A stretch of DNA of 62,704 bases, the filler included, from Chrysochromulina tobinii (Eukaryota): the NCBI GenBank assembly GCA_001275005.1. It is 6 parts of 6 records of this genome, joined end to end, with 100 filler letters (N's around TTAATTAATTAA, not from the genome) between each part and the next. Parts side by side here need not be neighbours in the genome. Positions count along the whole stretch, not along the records: positions 1 to 11,605 come from JWZX01000895.1; 5 more parts are not named here. One strand, given 5' to 3'. Positions within the stretch are counted from its first letter, which is position 1; the number at the start of each line of letters is the position of its first letter. The position numbers were made by a program, and so were the translations under genes. Shown one piece after another: positions 549 through 53,845 of the stretch. Under the pieces are notes generated by a model. That model was given only the letters and a program-made list of their open reading frames with translations. It was not told the origin of the DNA and ran no database searches.

Positions 549-3500
549 TCAAGACGCCCCAACGGACGCCCCGCGCTCGCGCACCCTTGCGCGTACCTCC
601 TTGATCCACGCGCTCGCCACGCGCAACCGCTCGAGGTCCCGCGAGCGCTCCTTGAGCTGCTGCACGCGTTTCTCATCGGAGCTCATCAGCTCCACCAAAT
701 TAGGGCACTCATCAATGGCGTGGGCGAGGTGCTGGCGCAGTCGCCACTCGACGGTCGCAGTACACACCTGATGAGGGAGGCAATCAGACCCAATTCGTAC
801 TCGCCATCAAGCGCAATCAAGCGCAATCAACTCGACGGTCGCAGGACACACCTCCGCGTGCGTGCCCAGCTGGACGTAGTCGAGCAGCCGCCGTTTCATC
901 ACGTGCCAGTACGCGTACGTCTTCAGCTGCAGCTCGACGAGGGCGTGCTCCTCGGTCGCGGGCTCCTTGGAGCGCTTCGCGTTGATGCCCTGTGCAAACT
1001 TCTTGGCGCTTGCGGGCGCGTCGGCCGACTGCTGCACGATATCGAGGTACGCCTGGCTCGTGGTGTGGGGCTCATTCTCCCAAGCGAGCAGCGTCTCGCC
1101 AATGGCCAAGGCACGCTCGAGGCCCTCGGTGATTGCAATCTGGGCGGCGGGCTCGAGTAGGGCGTGTAGGTTGTGGGGGCGGGCGTAGCAGCTCACCGCC
1201 TCCACTACGGACTCTTCCGTCGCCGCGGAGACCTGACGTACGTGGCCCACGATCAGCCCGTGCAGCGGCGCGAGCAGCTTCCGAAGCACGCCGACGGCGA
1301 CCTCGGAAACGATCTCATTCGGGAGACCGAGCCCGCCACGACGCGCGTCCGCTTCAAGGCGCAGCATGGTCCGAAACTGGCGCGAGCCGAAAAAGTCGTC
1401 CGTGTATAGCGCGTCCATCTCGGCACAGAGCGCCTGGTCGCGCGCATGCAGCTTGGCGCAAAGGAGCATGCGTGGCTGTGCCACGTCGCCGCCGCCCCCG
1501 CCCCCGAAGGGCCACAATCGAGAGAATGGCCAGAGCCCAACACGGCGCCCGATGCTGCCCACGTGGGCGCCGAGTTGGGCGCCCCCAACGCCAACGCCGC
1601 CGCCGCCGCCGCCGCCGCCGCTGGCCGCAGCAGCTCCAACGCCCAACTCGGCGCCGCCCATGTTGGGCTGAGCCCCTGTAGGCGCCCAACTCGGCGCCGC
1701 CCATGTTGGGTGAGCCCCTGTAGGCGCCCAACTCGGCGCCCATGTGCCACTCGTGGTCCAAGGCGCGGCCGGAGCGCTCCGCCTGCAGCCGATGGATGAT
1801 CTTGTCGACGACGAGGGCGGCGGTGGCCTTGGCGGCCTTCAATCGGCAACCACGCGACTCAGAGCCGATGGCGTTCAGATCTCACGAGAGAGGCCATCAG
1901 AGGCCATCAGAGGCCCATCAGAGGCCCTCAGAGGCCATCAGTGGGCCATCGCACCTGGAGCGAGTCAGGCACGGTGCCGATGCGCTCAATCTCGGCACGC
2001 AGCTCGCGCTCGCGCTGCTGTATGCGCGTGGCGATCGCGGGGAGCGACTGCGTAATCCTTCGCTCCTGATGAGGGAGGCAATCATTCCCAATTAGTACTC
2101 GCAATCAAGCGTAATCAATCGCAATCAAGCGTAATCAAGCGTAATCCTTCGCTCCTGGAGCTGTACAAGGCGCTGCCCGAGCTCGGCGACTCCCAATCCA
2201 TAGCCCGCGGCCGCCGCGCCTCGCTGCAGCTCGGGGTGGCCGAGATCTCGCAGCTCGAGCTCACGCGCCGTGCTGAGCGAGAGGCGGCTCTCATTCTCGC
2301 GCTGCGTGCGGTTTCGGACCAGGAAGGTGTGCTGCGGCCGCACATGGAGCTCGTGGATGGCGCTCTGCACCTGCATGCAATGAGGGAGGCAATCAGAGGT
2401 CATCAGAGCTCATCAGAGCTCGTGGATGGCGCTCTGCACCTGCATGCAATGAGGGAGGCAATCAGAGGTCATCAGAGGTCCTTAGAGCTCGTGGATGGCG
2501 CTCTGCACCTGCATGCATGCCAGTGCAGGGGCCATCGGACGCAATTAGGGGCACTAATAATGACCGAAGTCATCAGGGACCATCGGACGCAATTAGGGGC
2601 ACTCAGTGGCAGGAGCTCGTGGATCGCGCTTGGCCGTCGTCAATCAAGCGCAATCAAGCGCAATCAGGGGCACTCAGGGGCACTCAGTGGATCGCGCTTG
2701 GTCGCGCCTCAATCAAGCGCAATCAAAGCTCAATCCAGTCGCAATCAAGTCGCAATCAAGCGCAATCCAGTCGCAATCAAGCGCACCTTGGCCGCGAGTC
2801 GCGCCTCATCGTGCATCTCGTCCACCTTGGTGACGCACCTGATGAGGGAGGCAATCAGATGCACTCACACACCATCCGCGGCCCTCACCCTCGTCCACCG
2901 TGGTGACGCACAGCAGCGTGCGCTCGCCCGAGGGATCGACCTGGCGCGCGAGCTGCAGGCTGCCGCTCGTCGAGAAGTCGACCATGGCGCTGACCTGATG
3001 AAGGAGGCAATCAGACCCAATTAGTACTCGCAATCAAGCGCAATCAAGCGCAATCAAGCGCAATCAAGCGCAATCAAGCGCAATCAAGCGCAATCCAGTC
3101 GACCATGGGGCGCTCACCACGTTGAGGACGATGCAGCTCTCGGGGGCCATGTACTGCAGGCACATCTGCTTGATGCGCTGCTCGAGCTCGGCGTCCGGCA
3201 TCGACTGTCCCGCGACCGCGACGCGCGTGATCCCGGGCAGATCGATCAGATCGAGATCGTCGAGATCGCGCCGGTAGATGCGCAGCGTGATCGGCACGTC
3301 ACTCACGTCCTTGGCCGTGCCTGCGAGCGCAATCAAGTCGCAATCAAGTCGCAATCAAGTCGGAATCAAGTCGCAATCAAGTCGCAATCAAGCGCAAATC
3401 AAGTCGCAATCAGGCCGCCATCAAGCCGCAATCAAGTCCTTGGGCGTGCCTGCGAGCCTCTCGGTCATCTCTTCGACCGCGCGTGAGATTTGGGACAGAT

Positions 3501-4104
3501 CGCCGATGCGCTGCTCCGCGATCTCGGGAGCCGAGATGAAGGCGCACTCGCTCCCGCCGCCCTCGCGAAGGCCGCGCAGCTGCAGAACCAGCGGGCAACG
3601 CGTCTTGATGCCCTCGCCGCGCGGCAGGTCGACAGTCGAGAGCGCCTCGAGCAGCGACGTCTTGCCGTGCGACTGGTCGCCGACGACGACGATGCGCGCC
3701 GTCGAGGCCTGCGCCGCGTCGCTGCTGCGTCCCTGCCGGAGGATCGGCACGACCTCGCGCTCAAGGAAGGCGTTGAGCTCGAGCAGCGGGCGCACATGCT
3801 GCTTGAAGCCACTCAGCAGCGAGGAGGTCGTCACGAGCGGCTCCTCAGGCTGGCTGCTGCTACGGTTGCCGCCGAGCCGCTGCTCGACGAGGTTTCTCAT
3901 GCCGAACGGAGAGGCCGCCGCCTCAGCAGCCGCCGCAGCGGCAGCGCTCGCGGCGGCGGCCACGACGGCAACCGTCGCGCGGAGGCTCCCCGACGCGGCA
4001 GATCTGGCCGTGGCGGCGGTGCGCGTAGCGCCCATGCACCCGCCGCGTCGGATCGCGCCGAGCGGTCGCGTGCAGACGCGGAAGCCGATGGCAACTCGCG
4101 CCAT
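549..4104 (-). CDS. Mx/DRP4-like dynamin-family GTPase, spliced. Exons approx. 4104-3450, 3320-3118, 2994-2912, 2838-2787, 2370-2155, 2065-1955, 1836-852 (one unresolved frame break near 1640-1743) and 767-549
   Basis: After splicing: G1 VVVGDQSHGKTS, G2 IKTRCPL, G3 LIDLPGI, G4 TKVD; middle domain LGQRLVQLQERRITQSLP; GED-like AYWHVMKRRLLDYV. Intron phases are consistent. Start at ATG 4104 (alternative ATG 4035). Confidence 0.9.
768..851 (-). other. GT-AG intron (84 nt) flanked by a 24-bp exon duplication
   Basis: Plus-strand ACTCGACGGTCGCAG(T/G)ACACACCT at 746-769 and 830-853. Filler is TTGATTGCGC units plus the acceptor cassette. Splicing joins the two ORFs in frame. Confidence 0.88.
1837..1954 (-). 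other. GT-AG intron (118 nt) with TGATGGCCTC decamer repeats and no obvious flanking duplication
   Basis: CAG|GTGCGA...TTGAAG|GCC joins DSLQ to AAKATAAL in frame. Confidence 0.75.
2066..2154 (-). other. Probable GA-AG intron (89 nt) flanked by a perfect 19-bp duplication
   Basis: Plus-strand GCGTAATCCTTCGCTCCTG at 2050-2068 and 2139-2157. The intron ends in TGATTGCCTCCCTCATCAG. Removal gives LVQLQ|ERRITQSLP. Confidence 0.75.
2371..2786 (-). other. GT-AG intron (416 nt), microsatellite-rich, with repeated copies of the acceptor plus downstream exon start
   Basis: AAG|GTGCGC...TGCATGCAG|GTGCAG. 69-bp period units start at 2347, 2416 and 2485. Confidence 0.8.
2839..2911 (-). other. GT-AG intron (73 nt) with a 22-bp duplication of the G4 motif codons
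   Basis: Copies at 2817-2838 (encodes CVTKVDE) and 2890-2911 (CVTTVDE). Ends in the acceptor cassette. Confidence 0.9.
2995..3117 (-). other. GT-AG intron (123 nt) with an exon-start duplication and a (TTGATTGCGC)n array
   Basis: The intron starts GTGAGCGCCCCATGGTCGACT and the downstream exon starts GTCAGCGCCATGGTCGACT. The intron ends CTGATTGCCTCCTTCATCAG. Confidence 0.88.
3321..3449 (-). other. GC-AG intron (129 nt) flanked by a 22-bp duplication straddling AG|GC
   Basis: Plus-strand GTCCTTGG(C/G)CGTGCCTGCGAGC at 3307-3328 and 3436-3457. Filler is GACTTGATTGC-type units. Confidence 0.85.
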
Positions 4105-11605: not shown

Positions 11606-11705
11606 NNNNNNNNNNNNNNNNNNNNNNNNNNNNNNNNNNNNNNNNNNNNTTAATTAATTAANNNNNNNNNNNNNNNNNNNNNNNNNNNNNNNNNNNNNNN
11701 NNNNN
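11606..11705. other. Artificial contig spacer
   Basis: N44-TTAATTAATTAA-N44, which gives stops in all six frames. Confidence 0.98.
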
Positions 11706-32569: not shown

Positions 32570-35500
32570 TTATGCACCGTCTTCGCCGTTCAACAACACG
32601 CCCGCATGCAGCCACGGAGGCTGCTTGCACGCCAGCAGCCGCTCAATCTCGCACTGCCAGTGCCATGCCGTGTCGGAGACGTCGCACGCCGCCGCGTACG
32701 CGTTGCGCCGCAGCGCGGCGTAGTGCTCGGGCTGCGCGTACAGCGCCAGCGCACGCTCGAGCGAGCTCATCAGTGCCGAGTGCGAGTGCCCTGAAAAGGT
32801 CAGTCCGGAGCCCTTACGGCTGCGCTCGTCGTAGTCGGCCACTCGCTCGCGGAGGCCGCCGGCGCGCGAGCAGACGAGCGGCGTGCCGGCTGCGAAGAAC
32901 TCCTCGCGCACGAGCCCCGAGGGTTCGAAGAGGGAAGGCATGAGCCCAAAGTCCGCCGCGATGCTTGCGAGCGCGCCGTCCTCGAAAAAGGTGGCTGGGT
33001 CGGCCCAAAAGTGGTCTGGGTACGTTGCCTGGAGCGAGGCCATTTGTGGGCCGATGAATAGGCTATCCAGGCAATCAATAGGCCCCATAGGCCATCAAGA
33101 GGCAATCAAGAGGCCATCAAGAGGCCATCAAGAGGCCACCCGTGGAGATCGCACCTGGAGTGTGGCCATTTGGTCCGCGCACCGACGAGCGTATGCGTCC
33201 GAGGGGTCTGCGTGGCCGCAGACACACAGCTGCAGCTGCCCACGCGCGGCTTGGAGGATGGCCGGCACGCAGTCGAGGAGCAGATGGATGCCCTTTTGGT
33301 ATGAGATCCGCCCGAGGAAGAGGAGCAAAGGCACCGACGAGCGCACGCCAGATTCGCCAAAGCAGCGGCGCTGTAGCGTCGCCTTCGCGGCGGCATGGTC
33401 GCCATGCGCGGCCAGCTCGGCACGGCGCCGGCCGAGGGGCAGCCCCGAGGCGCATGCAATCGCTCCACCCGCCGCACGTAGCAGCGGCGCGTAGCTCGAG
33501 GATGCGAGGAGCTCGTCCCGATAGCTCGTCGAGACGGTCGCCCACGCACACGAGCAGAGGAGCGCGGCCCGAGTGAGCGAGATCGTGCCGAGATTGGGCT
33601 CCTGGCTGCCGCCCTTGCGACCCCCGCCCTCGTGCAGCAGACGGTGCGGCAGCTGGTGCAGCGCCGTCAGTTGCGTCGCCGGCGCATCCACCACCAACTT
33701 ACCATCGTACCCGGGCTCAAGGTTGTGGATGAGGTGCACGAAGAGCGCCGACTCGCCGAGCGCTCTCACCCCACTCGCCGCACTACCAGCCCAGCCCGGG
33801 TGTTGGGCGTAGGGCGCAGCGAGACCGGCCACCCAGTCGTTGGTCACGACTGCGTGCGGCAGCGGCTCTCCGCGCTCGCGCAGTCGGTCGAGCAGGAGCA
33901 GCGCGCCGCGCGCGAGCAGCGCGGCTGGGAGCAGTTTGCGCGCGGTACCACCTGTGGGGTCAGCAGAGGTCAGCAGAAGTCTTCAGAGGCCATCAGAAGT
34001 CCTCAGAGGCCATCAGAGGTCATCAGAGGCCATCAGAGGTCCTCAGAGGCCATCAGAGTTCCTCAGAGGTCACCTGTGGGGTAGGGCGCGCCAAAGCAAG
34101 CGCCATTCTCAAGGAGATGCACCGTCACTCCATGCTCCTGTATGGTGCGCACGCCCACGGACATGTGGGCGTGCCCGAGGGGAACTTGCAACGAGTACTC
34201 GAGGCGCATCGATGCCCAACGCGGCGCGTAGCACCGGTAGGCCGGCGCGATCACGCGTACGTGCGCGCCGCGCGCGGCGAGCGCGGCCGACAAGTGCGCG
34301 GTCATCGTGCCGAGCCCTCCGACGGATGCCCAGCGACCGAGTTCGGGGGTGATCAAGACGAGCCTCCGCGGCTGTGCCACCTCCACAAGCGCCCGGTGCA
34401 ACCGTGCAATTGGATCTCGGTGCAATCTCGGTGCAATTGGCGCGTTTGGGGCGGGCTGGAGGGGCGCAGCGGGTGTGGCGGGCGCGGCCGGCGGGCCTGC
34501 TGCGGCGGGCGGGCGCAGCGAGTCGCCGGCCGAGGCCGCATCCCCCGGCGCATCCCCCGAATGCCCACTGAGGACGCAATTGGGCGAGGCGGACGTTGGG
34601 TATGCGTCGTCGCTCGTCTTGACAACCGCTTGGTGTGCCTGCCATCGAGGGGTGGGGATTTCGGTCTGCGCGAGCCGACTCATTGCGCCGAGCGCACGCC
34701 GGATAGCCTGCGTCGCGCGCTGCGCGGCCTCCGCGGTCGTCAGAGCCTCGCATCTCGGTACGATCTCGGTACAATCTCCCGTGGCCGTGAGTGCCTCGGC
34801 AGCACGATCTCCCACACGATCTCCCACGCCGTCACGAGCGCCGTCGCGAGCGGTGTCCGACCCAAATATGTGAATCGGCTCGAGCGACTCGTCAGAGTGC
34901 TCTCCACCTCCAGCCCCAGCCCCAGCCCCAGCCCCAGCCCCTCCCACAGGCTCATGCAGCTCGTCAGAGTGCAGCGCACCTGCCTGGGCGGCCATATGCA
35001 CTGCGGCTGAGAGCATGAGTGCTAACGGTGCCATCATCCCGTCCTCGATGGGCATGAGCGACGTGAGGAGCGCGAGCAGACGGTGGCCAGAGGCGTTCGC
35101 GTCCGCGGACGCGCAGATGCGCTGCAGCGCCGTCGCCGCAGCATTGTGCTTCGCGTACGCACTCGGCCGTTGGCTCAGCCGACGGAGTGCACTGAGCAAG
35201 TGCGACCGGTAAGTCAGGTGCTTGGAGCAGTGCACGCGCAGGGCGACCAAGCCGTTGGCAGGCACACGTGCATGCAGCTGAGAGTGAGCCAGCTCTTGCC
35301 GAGAGAAGACCTCGAGCGCAGGCTCCTCAGCCTGGCATCCGGACGACATGACGCCAGGAACTCTGGCCACGGCGCTGACGCTGCTCGTGGAGGTCAGCAT
35401 GCGGTGGACGGCAACGAGCGCCTGGGGATCGTCATCGGCGCCATGGAGAGCTTCGGCGGAGACGTTGACTGCGACTGTCGTCGCAGCGCCGCTCAGATCG

Positions 35501-42376: not shown

Positions 42377-42477
42377 CCCTACGTAGCCGCTGGTTTCGAG
42401 ACCTGAAAATGCAATCCTGAGGAGTTAGGTCGAAAAAACGCTGTTTTGAGCGGCAGTTGACCTTTGTTGACCTCAAC

Positions 42478-43740
42478 CGAGGACCGGCGCCACTGGTCAC
42501 CATTGGTCACCCCTGGTCGCCCGTGTGCGCCCATTGAAGCCAGAACCCCCTGGCACCTTCTGGCACCCTCTGGTACCTATGGGCGCGCATGGGCGCACAT
42601 GGGCGACCGCTGGCGTGTACCGACGTATGAGCGCCCATCGTACCGAGGACCGGCGCCACTGGTCACCACTGGTCGCCAGCGAGCGCTTGTGTGCGCCCAT
42701 TGAAGCCAGAACCCCCTTGCACCTTCTGGCACCCTCTGGTACCGATGGGCGCTCATGGGCGCTCATGGGCACACATGGGCGCCCGCTGGAGCGTATGAGC
42801 GCGTACCGAGCACCTGCGCCAGTGGTCGCCAGTGGTCGCCAGTGGTCATCAAAGACCCGCACGCCTGAGACATAGCAGCTCAGGGAGGGCTCTGGCGGCC
42901 CTGCTCACATGGACAGAGTGACCACTTGTGTAGCATTTTGGGTAGCCTTAGTGCTCGGAGCCGTGGCACACGGAATGCGTGTACCGAGGAGTGGCGCCAC
43001 TGGTCACCCCTGGTTGCCAGTGAGCGCCCGTGTGCGCCCATTGAAGCCAGAACCCCCTGGCACCTTCTGGCACCCTCTGGTACCCATGGGCGCTCATGGG
43101 CGCTCATGGGCGCACATGGGCTACCGCTGGCGTGTACCGACGTATGAGCGCCCATCGTACCGAGGACCGGCGCCACTGGTCACCACTGGTTGCCAGTGAG
43201 CGCCCGTGTGCGCCCATTGAAGCCAGAACCCCCTGGCACCTTCTGGCACCTTCTGGTACCCATGGGCGCTCATGGGCGCTCATGGGCGCACATGGGCGAC
43301 CGCTGGCGTGTACCGACGTATGAGCGCCCATCGTACCGAGGACCGGCGCCACTGGTCACCACTAGTTGCCAGTGAGCGCCCGTGTGCGCCCATTGAAGCC
43401 AGAACCCCCTGGCACCTTCTGGCACCCTCTGGTACCGATGGGCGCTCATGGGCGCTCATGGGCGCGCATGGGCGACCGCTGGCGTGTACCGACGTATGAG
43501 CGAGTATCTATTGAGGACAGTCCGGGGCCAGTGCTCGCCAGTGGTCGCCAGTGGTCATCAAAGACCCGCACGCCTGAGACATAGCAGCTCAGGGAGGGCC
43601 CCGGCGGCCCTGCTCACGTGGACAGAGTGACCACTTGTGTAGCATTTTGGGTAGCCTTAGTGCTCGGAGCCGTGGCACACAGAATGCGCGCGAGGACCGG
43701 CGCCACTGGTCGCCCCTGGTCGCCCCTGGTTGCCCCTGGC
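42478..43740. repeat. Satellite with a monomer of about 176 bp and a higher-order period of about 709 bp
   Basis: GAGGACCGGCGCCACTGGTC recurs near 42479, 42646, 43162, 43338 and 43692. The block AGTGGTCATCAAAGACCCGCACG occurs at 42841 and 43550. Confidence 0.9.
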
Positions 43741-44139: not shown

Positions 44140-45080
44140 TGCTGCTGGCTGCTAGCTGCTGGCTGCTGGCTGCTGGCTGCTGGCTGCTGGCTGCTGGCTG
44201 CTGGCTGCTGGCTGATCTGGCTGTTGGCTGCTGGCTTCCTAAAGAGCTGCTGGAGCTGCTAGAGCTGCTTGAGCTGAGAGCTGCAAGCTGCAAGAGCTGC
44301 AGGCAGAGGATGAGCAGCTGTCTGATTCCAGGCAGGAGAGGATGCTGCCTGCTGGCTACCTCAAGAGCTGCTGGAGCTGCTAGAGCTGAGAGCTGCAACG
44401 TACACGCGAGGCAGAGCTGCATGAAGCTGAGGAGCTGCATGAGGCTGAGGAGCTGCATGAGGTGGCTGAGCAGGCTGAGCAGGCTGAGCAGGCTGAGCAG
44501 GCTGCTGAGCAGGCTGAGCAGGCTGCTGAGCAGGCTGAGCAGGCTGCTGAGCAGGCTGAGCAGGCTCCTGAGCAGGCTGAGCAGGCTGCTTGCTGATGAG
44601 CAGGCTGATGACCAGGCTGATGATGAGCAGGCTGATGACCAGGCTGATGATGAGCAGGCTGATGACCAGGCTGATGATGAGCAGGCTGATGAGCAGGCTG
44701 CCCAGGCTGATGATGATTAGGCTGATGACTAGGCTGATGATGATGATGAGCAGGCTGATGAGCAGGCTGATGATGATGATGAGCAGGCTGATGACCAGGC
44801 TGATGATGATGATGAGCAGGCTGATGACCAGGCTGATGATGATGATGAGCAGGCTGATGAGCAGGCTGCTGAGCAGGCTGCTGAGCAGGCTGATGAGCAG
44901 GCTGATGAGCAGGCTGAGCAGGCTGATGAGCAGGCTGATGAGCAGGCTGATGAGCAGGCTGAGCAGGCTGATGAGCAGGCTGATGAGCAGGCTGATGAGC
45001 AGGCTGATGAGCAGGCTGATGAGCAGGCTGATGAGCAGGCTGATGAGCAGGCTGATGAGCAGGCTGACGAGCAGGCTGAG
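44140..45080. repeat. Low-complexity minisatellite: (GCTGCTG)n, then (GAGCAGGCT[GAT/GCT]0-n)n
   Basis: Directly visible; runs to the contig end. Confidence 0.92.
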
Positions 45081-50900: not shown

Positions 50901-53845
50901 GGAGCTTTCGGAGGCGTCGCTGCCGCAGCAGTGTGGGGAATTGGCGCTCGTGTGCGCTGGCTGCTGCCTCGACCTCTCACGCGCTTTATGCATACCCGGC
51001 GGCGCCTCGCCGCCGCCCCCGCCGCCGCCGCCGCCGACTGGTGGCGCTGCAGTTGACGGCAGCGCGGCCGGTGCATCCAGTGCAGACGCATCGAGCACGG
51101 CGACAGAAGGGAGCCCAGCAAGGTCTCATACCGGTACCTCTCGTATTCTGGGAGCGGCCGCGTCCCTCGCGCTCTTGCAAGCGGCCATCGAGGCCCTGCT
51201 GCTCCATGTGTTTCGGGTGCGGGGGGGCGCGAGCGAGCAAGGGTGCCGATCGGCCTGCTGGATTCCTCAGGCCGCGCTTGCACCGCCCTCGCCGCTCGTC
51301 GCCATGCCCTGGGAGCCCAGCTACGCGCCGTTGGCCACCGACGATGCCGCCCAGCACCCAAGCGCCTCAATCAGCTCGGCGTCCGCCGCGCCTCCGCCGG
51401 CCGTCGTCGCATCCGCTGCTGACGGCACCGTTCAGCACCCAAGCGCCTCAGCGTCCTCCTCTCTCCCCTGTACGCCCAGCACGGCGCCCTCGCCGGCATC
51501 GCCCGCCGCCTCTCTACCTTCATCCCCCACGCACCTGTCGGAGTTGGAAGCGCGCGCCTCCCTGCTACTGCAGCAACTCACGCAGCAGATGGGCGATTCG
51601 CTCTACGAGCTCTCGTCCCTTCATGCCGCTGCCCACCACACGGCTTCCGACGGCCGCAACGACGCCAGCGACGATGCCCGCAACGACGCCCCGCACGCAG
51701 CAGCGACGGACGGACGGGCAGACGGCGCAGGGGCCATTGTGGAACCCGAAGCCGCCAACGCCGCCAACGCCGCCGCTGCAGCCAACGCCGCAGCGGCCGC
51801 CGGCACTGCAGCCGCCGGCACTGCCGCCGCCGGCAGTGCCGACGACGACGCCTCCTCCGCCTCCTCCTCCTCCATCCCCTGGGAATTCCTCCACCCGCCA
51901 TGGGTGCGCAAACAGCTCGCTCCCTTGATCGCATGGCTTGCAGCCGCCACTGCCGGCATCTCCCAACCCACACGCGCCGCTCTGCGCTCCATGGCACTTC
52001 GCGAGTCCCTGCCTCCCGACCCAGACGGTGCGGTCCGCTGCCTTCGGCTCGCAAGGACCGCCTATTGGTGGTCCCTGCTCATCTCGGCGCGTCACACCAC
52101 TTGGGCCGTTGGCGCTGGCAGTCCTAGCGCCGAGGGTGGGAACACTTCCGAAGCCGAGCACTCGAAGCTTCCGAAGCCGAGCACTTCCGAAGGAGGGCGC
52201 AGCTCCGAACGTGTGCGTAGCTCCTCGTGGCGCACAGCCTGCCTGAGCGAAGCCGTCGCCTCGCGCTCCCTAGCCCTTCGACGGCTCGGGTGTATACTCA
52301 ACGAGCTCGGCCAACGCCACCTTCGTCGGCGCGAGCCACTCCTCGCAGACGGATGCTTCGTCGATGGCATTGCCGCCTTCAGCCGCGCCAACGACGCTGC
52401 CAACACGGCGCTGCTGCTGCTCAACCGCGCCGCGATTGCACGCCAACGGGCGGCCTGGCATGTGGAGGCGTTTGCCACGGCGGCGGCGGCCATCAGCGCC
52501 GCGGAGCGAGCGCTCGCATTGCATGCCACCGCAGCCGCTGCCGTGGCGGCGATGGAGGCGGCTGAGGGGGCGACGGAGGAGGAGGGGGCGGCGGCCGAGG
52601 AGGGGGCGGCGGCGGAGGAGGGGGCGGCGGCCGCGCCCACGCAGGAGGCAGCAGGAGGCGATGCATCTGGCGGAGGCGGCAAGTTCACATCGCCTCCACC
52701 GCCACCGATGCCGCCGCCACCGTCCGTTGTCCTCGACCCCGCGGCCATCCCCGACGTCACGGAGCTCACATCTCCCCGCCATCTCCTGCTCACCTCTCCC
52801 CGCCATCTTCCCGACGAGACGGAGCTCACCCTTCTCCTGAGCGCCGTCGAGCTGCAGCGGCAGGCGTGGCAGCAGCTCCAGCAGCTCCGCGGCGGAGCCC
52901 CGGCGCCTCTGCGTGCGATGGTGCTACGGGAGCTGAGCGGCGGCGAGGCGGCGGCGGGCTCGGCGTTGCATGCGGTGGTCGCTGAGACCGGAGGGAGCGA
53001 AGCGATAGTGAGGCGCGCGGCCGCCTGCCTGGCGAGCGCTCAGCAACTCTATGAGGAGCTCGGCGAGCTCGCGCAGGTGCGGCTGATGACGGCTGATTGC
53101 CATGGATTGAAACTGGCACTGAGTGGACGCTGAGTGGACGCTGAGTGGACGCTGAGTGGACGCTGAGTGGACGCTGAGTGGACGCTGAGTGGACGCTGTG
53201 CCCGGCGCGGTGCGCGCGCAGGTGCAGCTGATGATGCGCAAGCAAGGGTCGCTCTACCTCGCCTCCCTCGTGTGTGCGTCGCTCTCGGACTCGTTGAGCG
53301 AGCGAGCTGCCGCCTCCCGCCTCACGCTTGCGCTTCGTCACTACGATCGCGCGCTCAATTTGCGTGGGGGTCTCGGCCACGGCGGCGCCGCCGCAGCCAG
53401 CGCGAATGCGGCCGCCTCCCCAACCATGGAGCGATGCGTGGCCGAGTGTCGCCTCGAGCTCGCCACCTTTTTCCTCTCGTGGAGCCTGTCGACGAGTGTG
53501 CGTGCGCTGGGGACGGAGGCGAGCGCGACGCGCATTCGCCATCTGGAAGCGGCTCTCGGCCATGCGCGTGCCGGCGCATCCGCCACCACACCCAACGCAC
53601 CCGCCATCCCCCACGCACCCGCCACCCCCCACGCACCCGCCACCCGTCCCGCAGCCACCCTTCCCGCTGAGGTGGTCCGAGCGCTCGCGCAGGCAGAGCA
53701 GACGGCCCTTCGTGAGCTCATTAAGGCGCACACAGCGCATGGCAACGTGGCCCGCGCCTCCGCCCTCAAGGAGGTCTACCGCCGCCAGCTGGGTGCGCTC
53801 AAGACGGCGCTCTCGCAGGCTGAGGGCCGAGAGGCTCCCGGCTGA
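47920..53845 (+). CDS. EDRF1: Erythroid differentiation-related factor 1-like protein (exons 47920-53076 and 53222-53845)
   Basis: MKRLLTLPY..VHRVGSSLVID, MLLGTDLPIF and DFWLDNVMNAIPALAVCGHVDGMVKGYQ match my recollection of EDRF1 conserved blocks. There are long low-complexity inserts. Confidence 0.8.
53077..53221 (+). other. GT-AG intron (145 nt) flanked by a 20-bp duplication and containing (CTGAGTGGACG)x7
   Basis: CGCGCAG|GTGC(G/A)GCTGATGA at 53070-53089 and 53215-53234. Splicing joins the two ORFs in frame. Confidence 0.9.

Follow-up and report, generated by a model that had tools for sequence, protein, structure and literature searches.

A dynamin-family gene with seven introns

The stretch of DNA analysed here (the window) comprises 62,704 nucleotides (nt) of the Chrysochromulina tobinii assembly GCA_001275005.1. 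Runs of filler N at 11606, 21711, 42277, 45081 and 56556, each with a central 12-base AT spacer, separate flanking contigs that are not linked to each other. On another contig of the window than the gene under study, an intronless gene encodes a protein that shares a 90% cluster with one of Chrysochromulina tobinii, in keeping with a C. tobinii-like haptophyte. The gene under study lies at 549..4035 on the minus strand and encodes a dynamin-family GTPase, as assigned from Pfam, from homologues and from in-script splicing. The Dynamin_N domain (PF00350) is matched in exons 1 and 2, which places the product in this family; full-length homologues, about 50% identical over the matched part, carry both PF00350 and PF01031, and one distant match (P0011, 36% identity) is named DRP4C. 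As assembled, the gene product is 577 aa long and reaches 817 aa when base 1668 is omitted. This single extra base, situated within a 42/43-nt repeat, shifts the reading frame; it is absent from the RNA contig of run X4 (depth 2.5) and is therefore likely an assembly error or an allele.

Parts of the gene were found in 18 RNA runs, of which six (X1, X2, X3, X4, X8 and X15) were examined. All were used as assembled contigs and not as reads, so that minor isoforms would be invisible. We named the seven introns A to G in the direction of transcription, all coordinates below being on the minus strand unless stated. Intron A (3321..3449, 129 nt) carries a duplication of 8+14 nt across the splice site; its joint was seen in X4 only, and GC-AG is the sole near-canonical placement of this 129-nt joint. 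Intron B (2995..3117, 123 nt, GT-AG; joint in X2 and X4) begins with a diverged copy of the next exon. Intron D (2371..2786, 416 nt, GT-AG) is joined in X4; at its end (2347-2517) the acceptor and the exon start are repeated in tandem 2.5 times, with a unit of 69 nt, and the single joint seen uses the last acceptor. Intron F (1837..1954, 118 nt, GT-AG; joint in X1, X2 and X8) has the donor cag|GTGCGA and is devoid of a long duplication, and intron G (768..851, 84 nt, GT-AG; joint in X8, X2 and X4) carries a duplication of 2+22 nt.

Intron C (2839..2911, 73 nt, GT-AG) is a prediction with a 22-nt duplication and no listed joint. It is retained in contigs of X2, X3 and X4, in two of which intron B is spliced, and its retention stops the frame at aa 325. 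Its donor, gct|GTGCGT, is the weakest; the positions at which contigs end (2809, 2901 and 2930) are compatible with a second path in which the intron is spliced.

Three further GT-AG introns are predicted elsewhere in the window, at 33029-33154 (minus), 33952-34073 (minus) and 53077-53221 (plus), all with a filler of 10-11 nt repeats and flanking duplications. Together with those of the dynamin-family gene they make ten window introns (8 GT, 1 GC and 1 GA donors). Duplications of 10-24 nt lie across the splice site in seven of the ten, a count to be read with the three introns outside the gene being predictions. Over all ten, duplication length ranges from 3 to 24 nt and the split across the splice site varies. 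At 33029-33154 and 33952-34073 the duplication lies on the exon-end side, the 3′ end of the intron copying the tail of the upstream exon. In introns B, C, E and G it lies mainly on the exon-start side: the filler provides the acceptor, and the donor lies in the upstream copy.

Intron E is bounded by an exact 19-nt direct repeat

The two copies of the repeat, at 2050-2068 and 2139-2157, are offset by 89 nt and do not extend on either side. Exact repeats of at least 16 nt at a spacing of 40-300 nt were searched for in six long ORFs of the window (11.8 kb) and none was found. An 89-nt intron can be placed in 20 equivalent ways within such a repeat. A full listing gave no GT-AG or GC-AG placement (0/20) and two GA-AG placements: 2154..2066 (cag|GAGCGA...CATCAG) and 2146..2058 (aag|GATTAC...GCGAAG). 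An earlier, sequence-only reading of this locus had claimed that no canonical placement exists and had named the first of these two; the claim is borne out, and the second GA-AG placement has to be added to it.

In the preferred placement (2066..2154), the upstream copy of the duplication (2139..2157) supplies three exonic bases, CAG, and the first 16 bases of the intron, with the GA donor at 2154-2153; the downstream copy (2050..2068) supplies the acceptor CAG and the first 16 bases of the following exon. The acceptor belongs to a family motif, TGATTGCCTCCCTCATCAG (2066..2084), common to introns B, C and G and to many loci elsewhere, and RNA supports its use as acceptor in B and G. Upstream of it, the predicted branch point is TACTAAT (2091..2097, with the A at -27), which we take to resemble the branch consensus. 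The filler also holds an array of 4.4 copies of a 10-nt repeat (2099..2146); the first units of this array agree with the last part of the duplicated exon piece.

When intron E is retained, the reading frame stops at aa 389. A GT lies further upstream (ctt|GTACAG, 2161..2169, donor at 2166); it matches the donor profile poorly (score -3.2, see below) and its use was not seen in the RNA contigs examined. It would give a 101-nt intron, in frame, with deletion of the residues VQLQ. In a MAFFT alignment the four columns of VQLQ are occupied by residues in 13/13 homologues, against which the GT form leaves a four-residue gap. Gene models of this alga will choose the GT at 2166, at the cost of four conserved residues, or overlook such introns. 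The in-frame canonical alternatives with unmatched ends (GT 2166; GC 2152 or 2140 with AG 2058) were rejected for their poor scores and their misfit to the 89-nt joint.

Absence of the 89 nucleotides from assembled RNA

Two of the six RNA runs examined show the 89-nt joint. In contigs of X2 (depth 4.0) and X8 (poly-A, depth 28.2), bases 2049 and 2139 are directly adjacent; the contigs of both runs also skip intron F. The X1 contig skips intron F but runs 11 nt into intron E. In X15, a run of unrecorded kind, the sequence is unspliced at intron F and both ends of intron E are present, with no joint listed. No listed contig of X3 or X4 spans intron E, and these two runs are hence uninformative there. 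Among the joints listed in the RNA contigs examined there is no 101-nt skip. A check by cDNA had been proposed for this locus; in the assembled RNA of X2 and X8 the 89 nt are removed, the upstream GT is unused and the gene is expressed. Since all 20 placements yield identical cDNA, such data cannot locate the cut itself, and the placement at 2066..2154 comes from the acceptor family and the donor score.

The skip could have arisen during cDNA synthesis. Long direct repeats at a joint are a hallmark of artefacts caused by reverse-transcriptase jumps; intron E has 19-nt repeats at its joint, and all our RNA data are cDNA. PMC7072748 mentions template switching among the ways in which GA-AG calls may come about. 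We nonetheless regard a jump as very improbable here: two libraries of different type both assembled into the skipped form, the region is no more prone to folding than shuffled sequences (z +0.38 and -0.66) and holds no unusual hairpin, the protein would end at aa 389 if the 89 nt were kept, and the GA site at 2154 is the best donor match in the region.

Alternatively, the strains or alleles behind the RNA might have no such 89 nt in their DNA, which they never gained or which recombination between the two 19-nt copies removed; the window allele itself would then be spliced poorly or not at all. X8, which differs from the window at 13/687 bases, is a different strain and could lack the insertion; the X1 contig shows an unspliced boundary of intron E, and at other loci the number of repeat units differs between assemblies (see below). 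X2, however, skips the 89 nt with a difference from the window of 1/369 aligned bases. X15 contains intron E with no joint listed, and two assembled loci (L085 and L112) carry it and are identical over 620 nt, though possibly not independent of the window; its donor and acceptor both look functional as well. This reading therefore appears unlikely to us, if somewhat less so than a reverse-transcriptase jump.

Absent from the X2 and X8 contigs, without any GT-AG or GC-AG placement and with an exonic AG ahead of the GA, intron E has several of the characters of a GA-AG spliceosomal intron of U2 type. The 89 bases between the 19-nt copies are thus likely a true GA-AG intron, which the ordinary spliceosome would remove using the donor at 2154 and the acceptor at 2066.

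The probable GA donor lies in a near-perfect context

To compare donors, a matrix was built from the nine GT/GC donors of the window (five supported by RNA, four predicted), position +2 being ignored. With this matrix, cag|GAGCGA at 2154 scores 9.7, the highest of the 37 G[ATC] sites in 2100-2239 and level with the best GT donors. The donor of the second GA placement (2146) scores only -2.5. The cut at 2154..2066 is accordingly preferred over 2146..2058, because its acceptor is the recurring family motif and its donor is the gene's best GT donor except at +2. Indeed, the donors of introns E and F are identical apart from this position (GA versus GT), which makes them a natural pair to test how far the rest of a site compensates for a non-canonical dinucleotide. 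To the donor consensus, cag|GAGCGA matches at 6/9 positions. The GA would be tolerated because the site agrees with the gene's best GT donor from -3 to +1 and from +3 to +6, so that U1 pairing would lose only +2; the site would then be recognised by ordinary U1 with a single mismatch. Rfam gave no match in the window.

The sequence-only reading had further proposed that the 5′ splice site is permissive, accepting GT, GC and GA in one gene, and that many such insertions are thereby tolerated. The first part stands, the GC donor coming from a single X4 contig; the second fared poorly. Among the 53 family acceptors followed by GA, inspected by eye from sequence alone, only one other clean candidate for a GA donor emerged, at the locus pair L022/L113 (cag|GAACGT, 24-nt duplication; by eye the gene resembles one for a TPR-repeat protein). 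In most other GA-starting duplicated units inspected by eye, a GT or GC donor lies upstream of or inside the copy, or the acceptor of an older intron precedes it. CAG stands before GA in about one third of GA-starting units, and we considered this as proof of a large class of GA donors; inspection by eye led us to reject it. At L005, L016, L072, L080, the first site of L038 and probably L003, an older intron upstream has this CAG as its acceptor, and at L001, L066, L086 and the second site of L038 a GT or GC donor lies within the copy. Since most GA-starting copies are not GA donors, permissiveness of the donor seems narrow, GA passing only in a near-perfect context.

At L012 and L035 the exon has GA but its upstream copy has GC, a difference that would be in line with selection for an improved donor.

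GA donors had also been described in the earlier reading as rare and best known from dinoflagellates. This has to be widened, as they are reported in the haptophyte Emiliania huxleyi: the GA column of Table 3 in PMC4028052 gives 11 (4%) of 241 curated junctions and 1203 (4%) EST junctions, and one GA junction was verified by RT-PCR and Sanger sequencing. E. huxleyi resembles the present case in its GT, GC and GA donors, its AG acceptors and its frequent intron retention. It differs in that GC is its majority donor, whereas only one of our ten introns has GC, and in that its GA donors are not tied to duplications in the part of PMC4028052 available, whereas the GA donor here sits in one. The GA-AG introns of Eurytemora affinis and Oikopleura dioica share with intron E a conserved exonic AG ahead of the GA, but have a conserved A after it, where intron E continues with GCG like the GT donors of its own gene; a U1 variant has been proposed for these two species (PMC7072748).

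A family of acceptors and a shared intron end

A pattern search for the family acceptor motif followed by GA retrieved at least 120 loci. Comparisons were made on 78 distinct acceptors, composed of pattern matches, for which GA was required after the acceptor, and of the window's own sites; this is a biased sample. An upstream copy of the sequence following the acceptor was present at 31 of the 78, against 1.3% (maximum 4%) in shuffled pairs. Many units in this sample are tandem copies beside an older intron and not new introns.

The likeness extends further than the acceptor at a few sites. The last 40 nt of intron E (2066..2105) recur nearly identical in intron B (37/40), in intron G (36/40) and at one other locus (37/40); these are the only three of the other 77 sites to reach 36-37/40, all remaining ones being at 28/40 or below. 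Counted over the sample, the 40-nt end is present at three of the four family acceptors of this gene (B, E and G) against 1/74 elsewhere (Fisher p 2e-4, a post-hoc test on a biased sample). The fillers of the introns are arrays of 10-nt units and are dissimilar from end to end.

The number of units, each made of an exon piece, repeats and an acceptor, varies between assemblies at several loci (L005/L063, L022/L113, L010/L030, L043/L048, L080/L088, L001/L074 and L021/L071), and indels of at least 35 nt occur in 11 of the 32 multi-member groups of assembled loci. These differences may be real variation or collapsed repeats, and for this reason we do not claim polymorphism. At L053, acceptor and exon start are repeated in tandem, which lengthens a GT intron from only 31 nt, measured to its first acceptor, to 88 nt.

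Possible origins of intron E

The likely origin of intron E is an insertion of repeat-rich DNA that already ended in an acceptor, with duplication of the target site; the upstream copy of the exon start presumably turned into the donor. Taken as a whole, GA-AG splicing at 2154/2066 together with an origin by such an insertion is the explanation that we hold to be best, with good though not full confidence. No empty (intron-less) DNA site was seen in X15, L085 or L112, and no intron-less allele or orthologue was found, so that the gain of the intron is something we infer.

The intron could instead be old. An ancestral GT intron at this position would first have undergone a tandem duplication of its acceptor and exon start and then have lost its front part, with the exon copy left as the donor; the arrangement seen today would be no different. 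Tandem copies of acceptor plus exon start are common beside existing introns (L005/L063, L053, L080 and intron D), and such a history likewise predicts a CAG ahead of the GA. It requires two events, however; no remnant of a front part is visible at 2155-2170, where the exon aligns to its homologues free of gaps, and introns B, C and G, which are built like E, have no CAG before the copy. We consider this old-intron history rather doubtful.

An equally doubtful proposal takes the filler for a mobile element of non-autonomous type (an introner or SINE-like), lying antisense to the gene with its repeat tail adjoining the target duplication. The 3′ motif common to so many loci and the long duplications in most window introns speak for it, as does the precedent of Symbiodinium introners, known to carry an acceptor and to co-opt a donor (10.1101/2022.06.06.494994). 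The fillers, on the other hand, are not alike from end to end, with identity over the last 40 nt falling to at most 28 outside the four sites; the duplications vary in length and lie on either side of the splice site, and no terminal inverted repeat is evident by eye in the filler. Set beside the characters of introners, the introns examined here do derive a splice site from a duplicated target, but end-to-end similar copies and short duplications of fixed length were not found.

Insertion with target-site duplication remains our preferred origin, and within it the source of the filler may lie close by. A neighbouring intron in this gene could have served as its template during break repair, with no delivery by a transposon, a suggestion made with less assurance, to which we give about even odds. 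Copying of the 3′ half of a neighbouring intron fits the concentration of the 40-nt end in this gene and the short matches present at both joints of intron E, where the end of the duplicated piece nearly matches the repeat unit and the other joint shares CAG-G; such matches would assist copying during repair. Extended to the alga in general, the proposal is that intron gain needs no transposon: an existing intron would pass a copy of its 3′ half (repeats, branch point and acceptor) to an exon nearby in its own gene, with a target duplication of 10-24 nt; the duplicated exon start would become the donor, and selection would retain those events in which this start reads GT or GC, or GA where the context is a perfect CAG|GNGCG. 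We offer this general model tentatively, as a possibility that has less than an even chance of being right. If local copying is true, intron gain would be local and self-propagating, and invisible to introner screens; strain genomes of the cultured alga would then show directly a gain by repair or duplication, a long-debated route.

Comparison with described routes of intron gain

Break repair with filler DNA and tandem duplication of a proto-splice site are both proposed routes of intron gain (PMC3296678). As in these, direct repeats flank intron E and the duplication spans AG|G. The present case differs from them in that the filler resembles the 3′ half of neighbouring introns, and in that repeats flank most of the introns examined and not a background share of them.

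Symbiodinium microadriaticum introners resemble intron E in drawing the donor from a duplicated target, bringing in the acceptor and leaving the mRNA unchanged (Gozashti et al., 10.1101/2022.06.06.494994; PMC9860276), and some introner families reach 40% GA donors (10.1101/2022.06.06.494994). In contrast to our 10-24 nt duplications and differing fillers, Symbiodinium introners have 4-bp duplications, terminal inverted repeats and copies that are similar from end to end. The introner example from a marine Chrysochromulina, with 4-bp duplications and a donor carried by the element, is also unlike intron E (10.1101/2022.06.06.494994; PMC9860276). Both C. tobinii and C. parva appear in the genome list of PMC9860276 but not, among the rows listed, in its introner tables; C. 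parva is entered with no annotated genes and may thus not have been effectively screened. In the literature searched, outside which most subscription papers lie, we found no description of duplication-flanked introns in Chrysochromulina, and the main text of the C. tobin genome paper mentions introns once. Intron E can be counted, with good support, among GA-AG introns as already known; its setting, with long duplications and intron ends shared within one gene, differs from that of the described introners.

Longer tandem arrays also occur in the window away from the dynamin-family gene: a 176-nt unit is repeated about 5.8 times at 42476-43502, and a long array with a 12-nt period occupies a contig end at 44494-45080.
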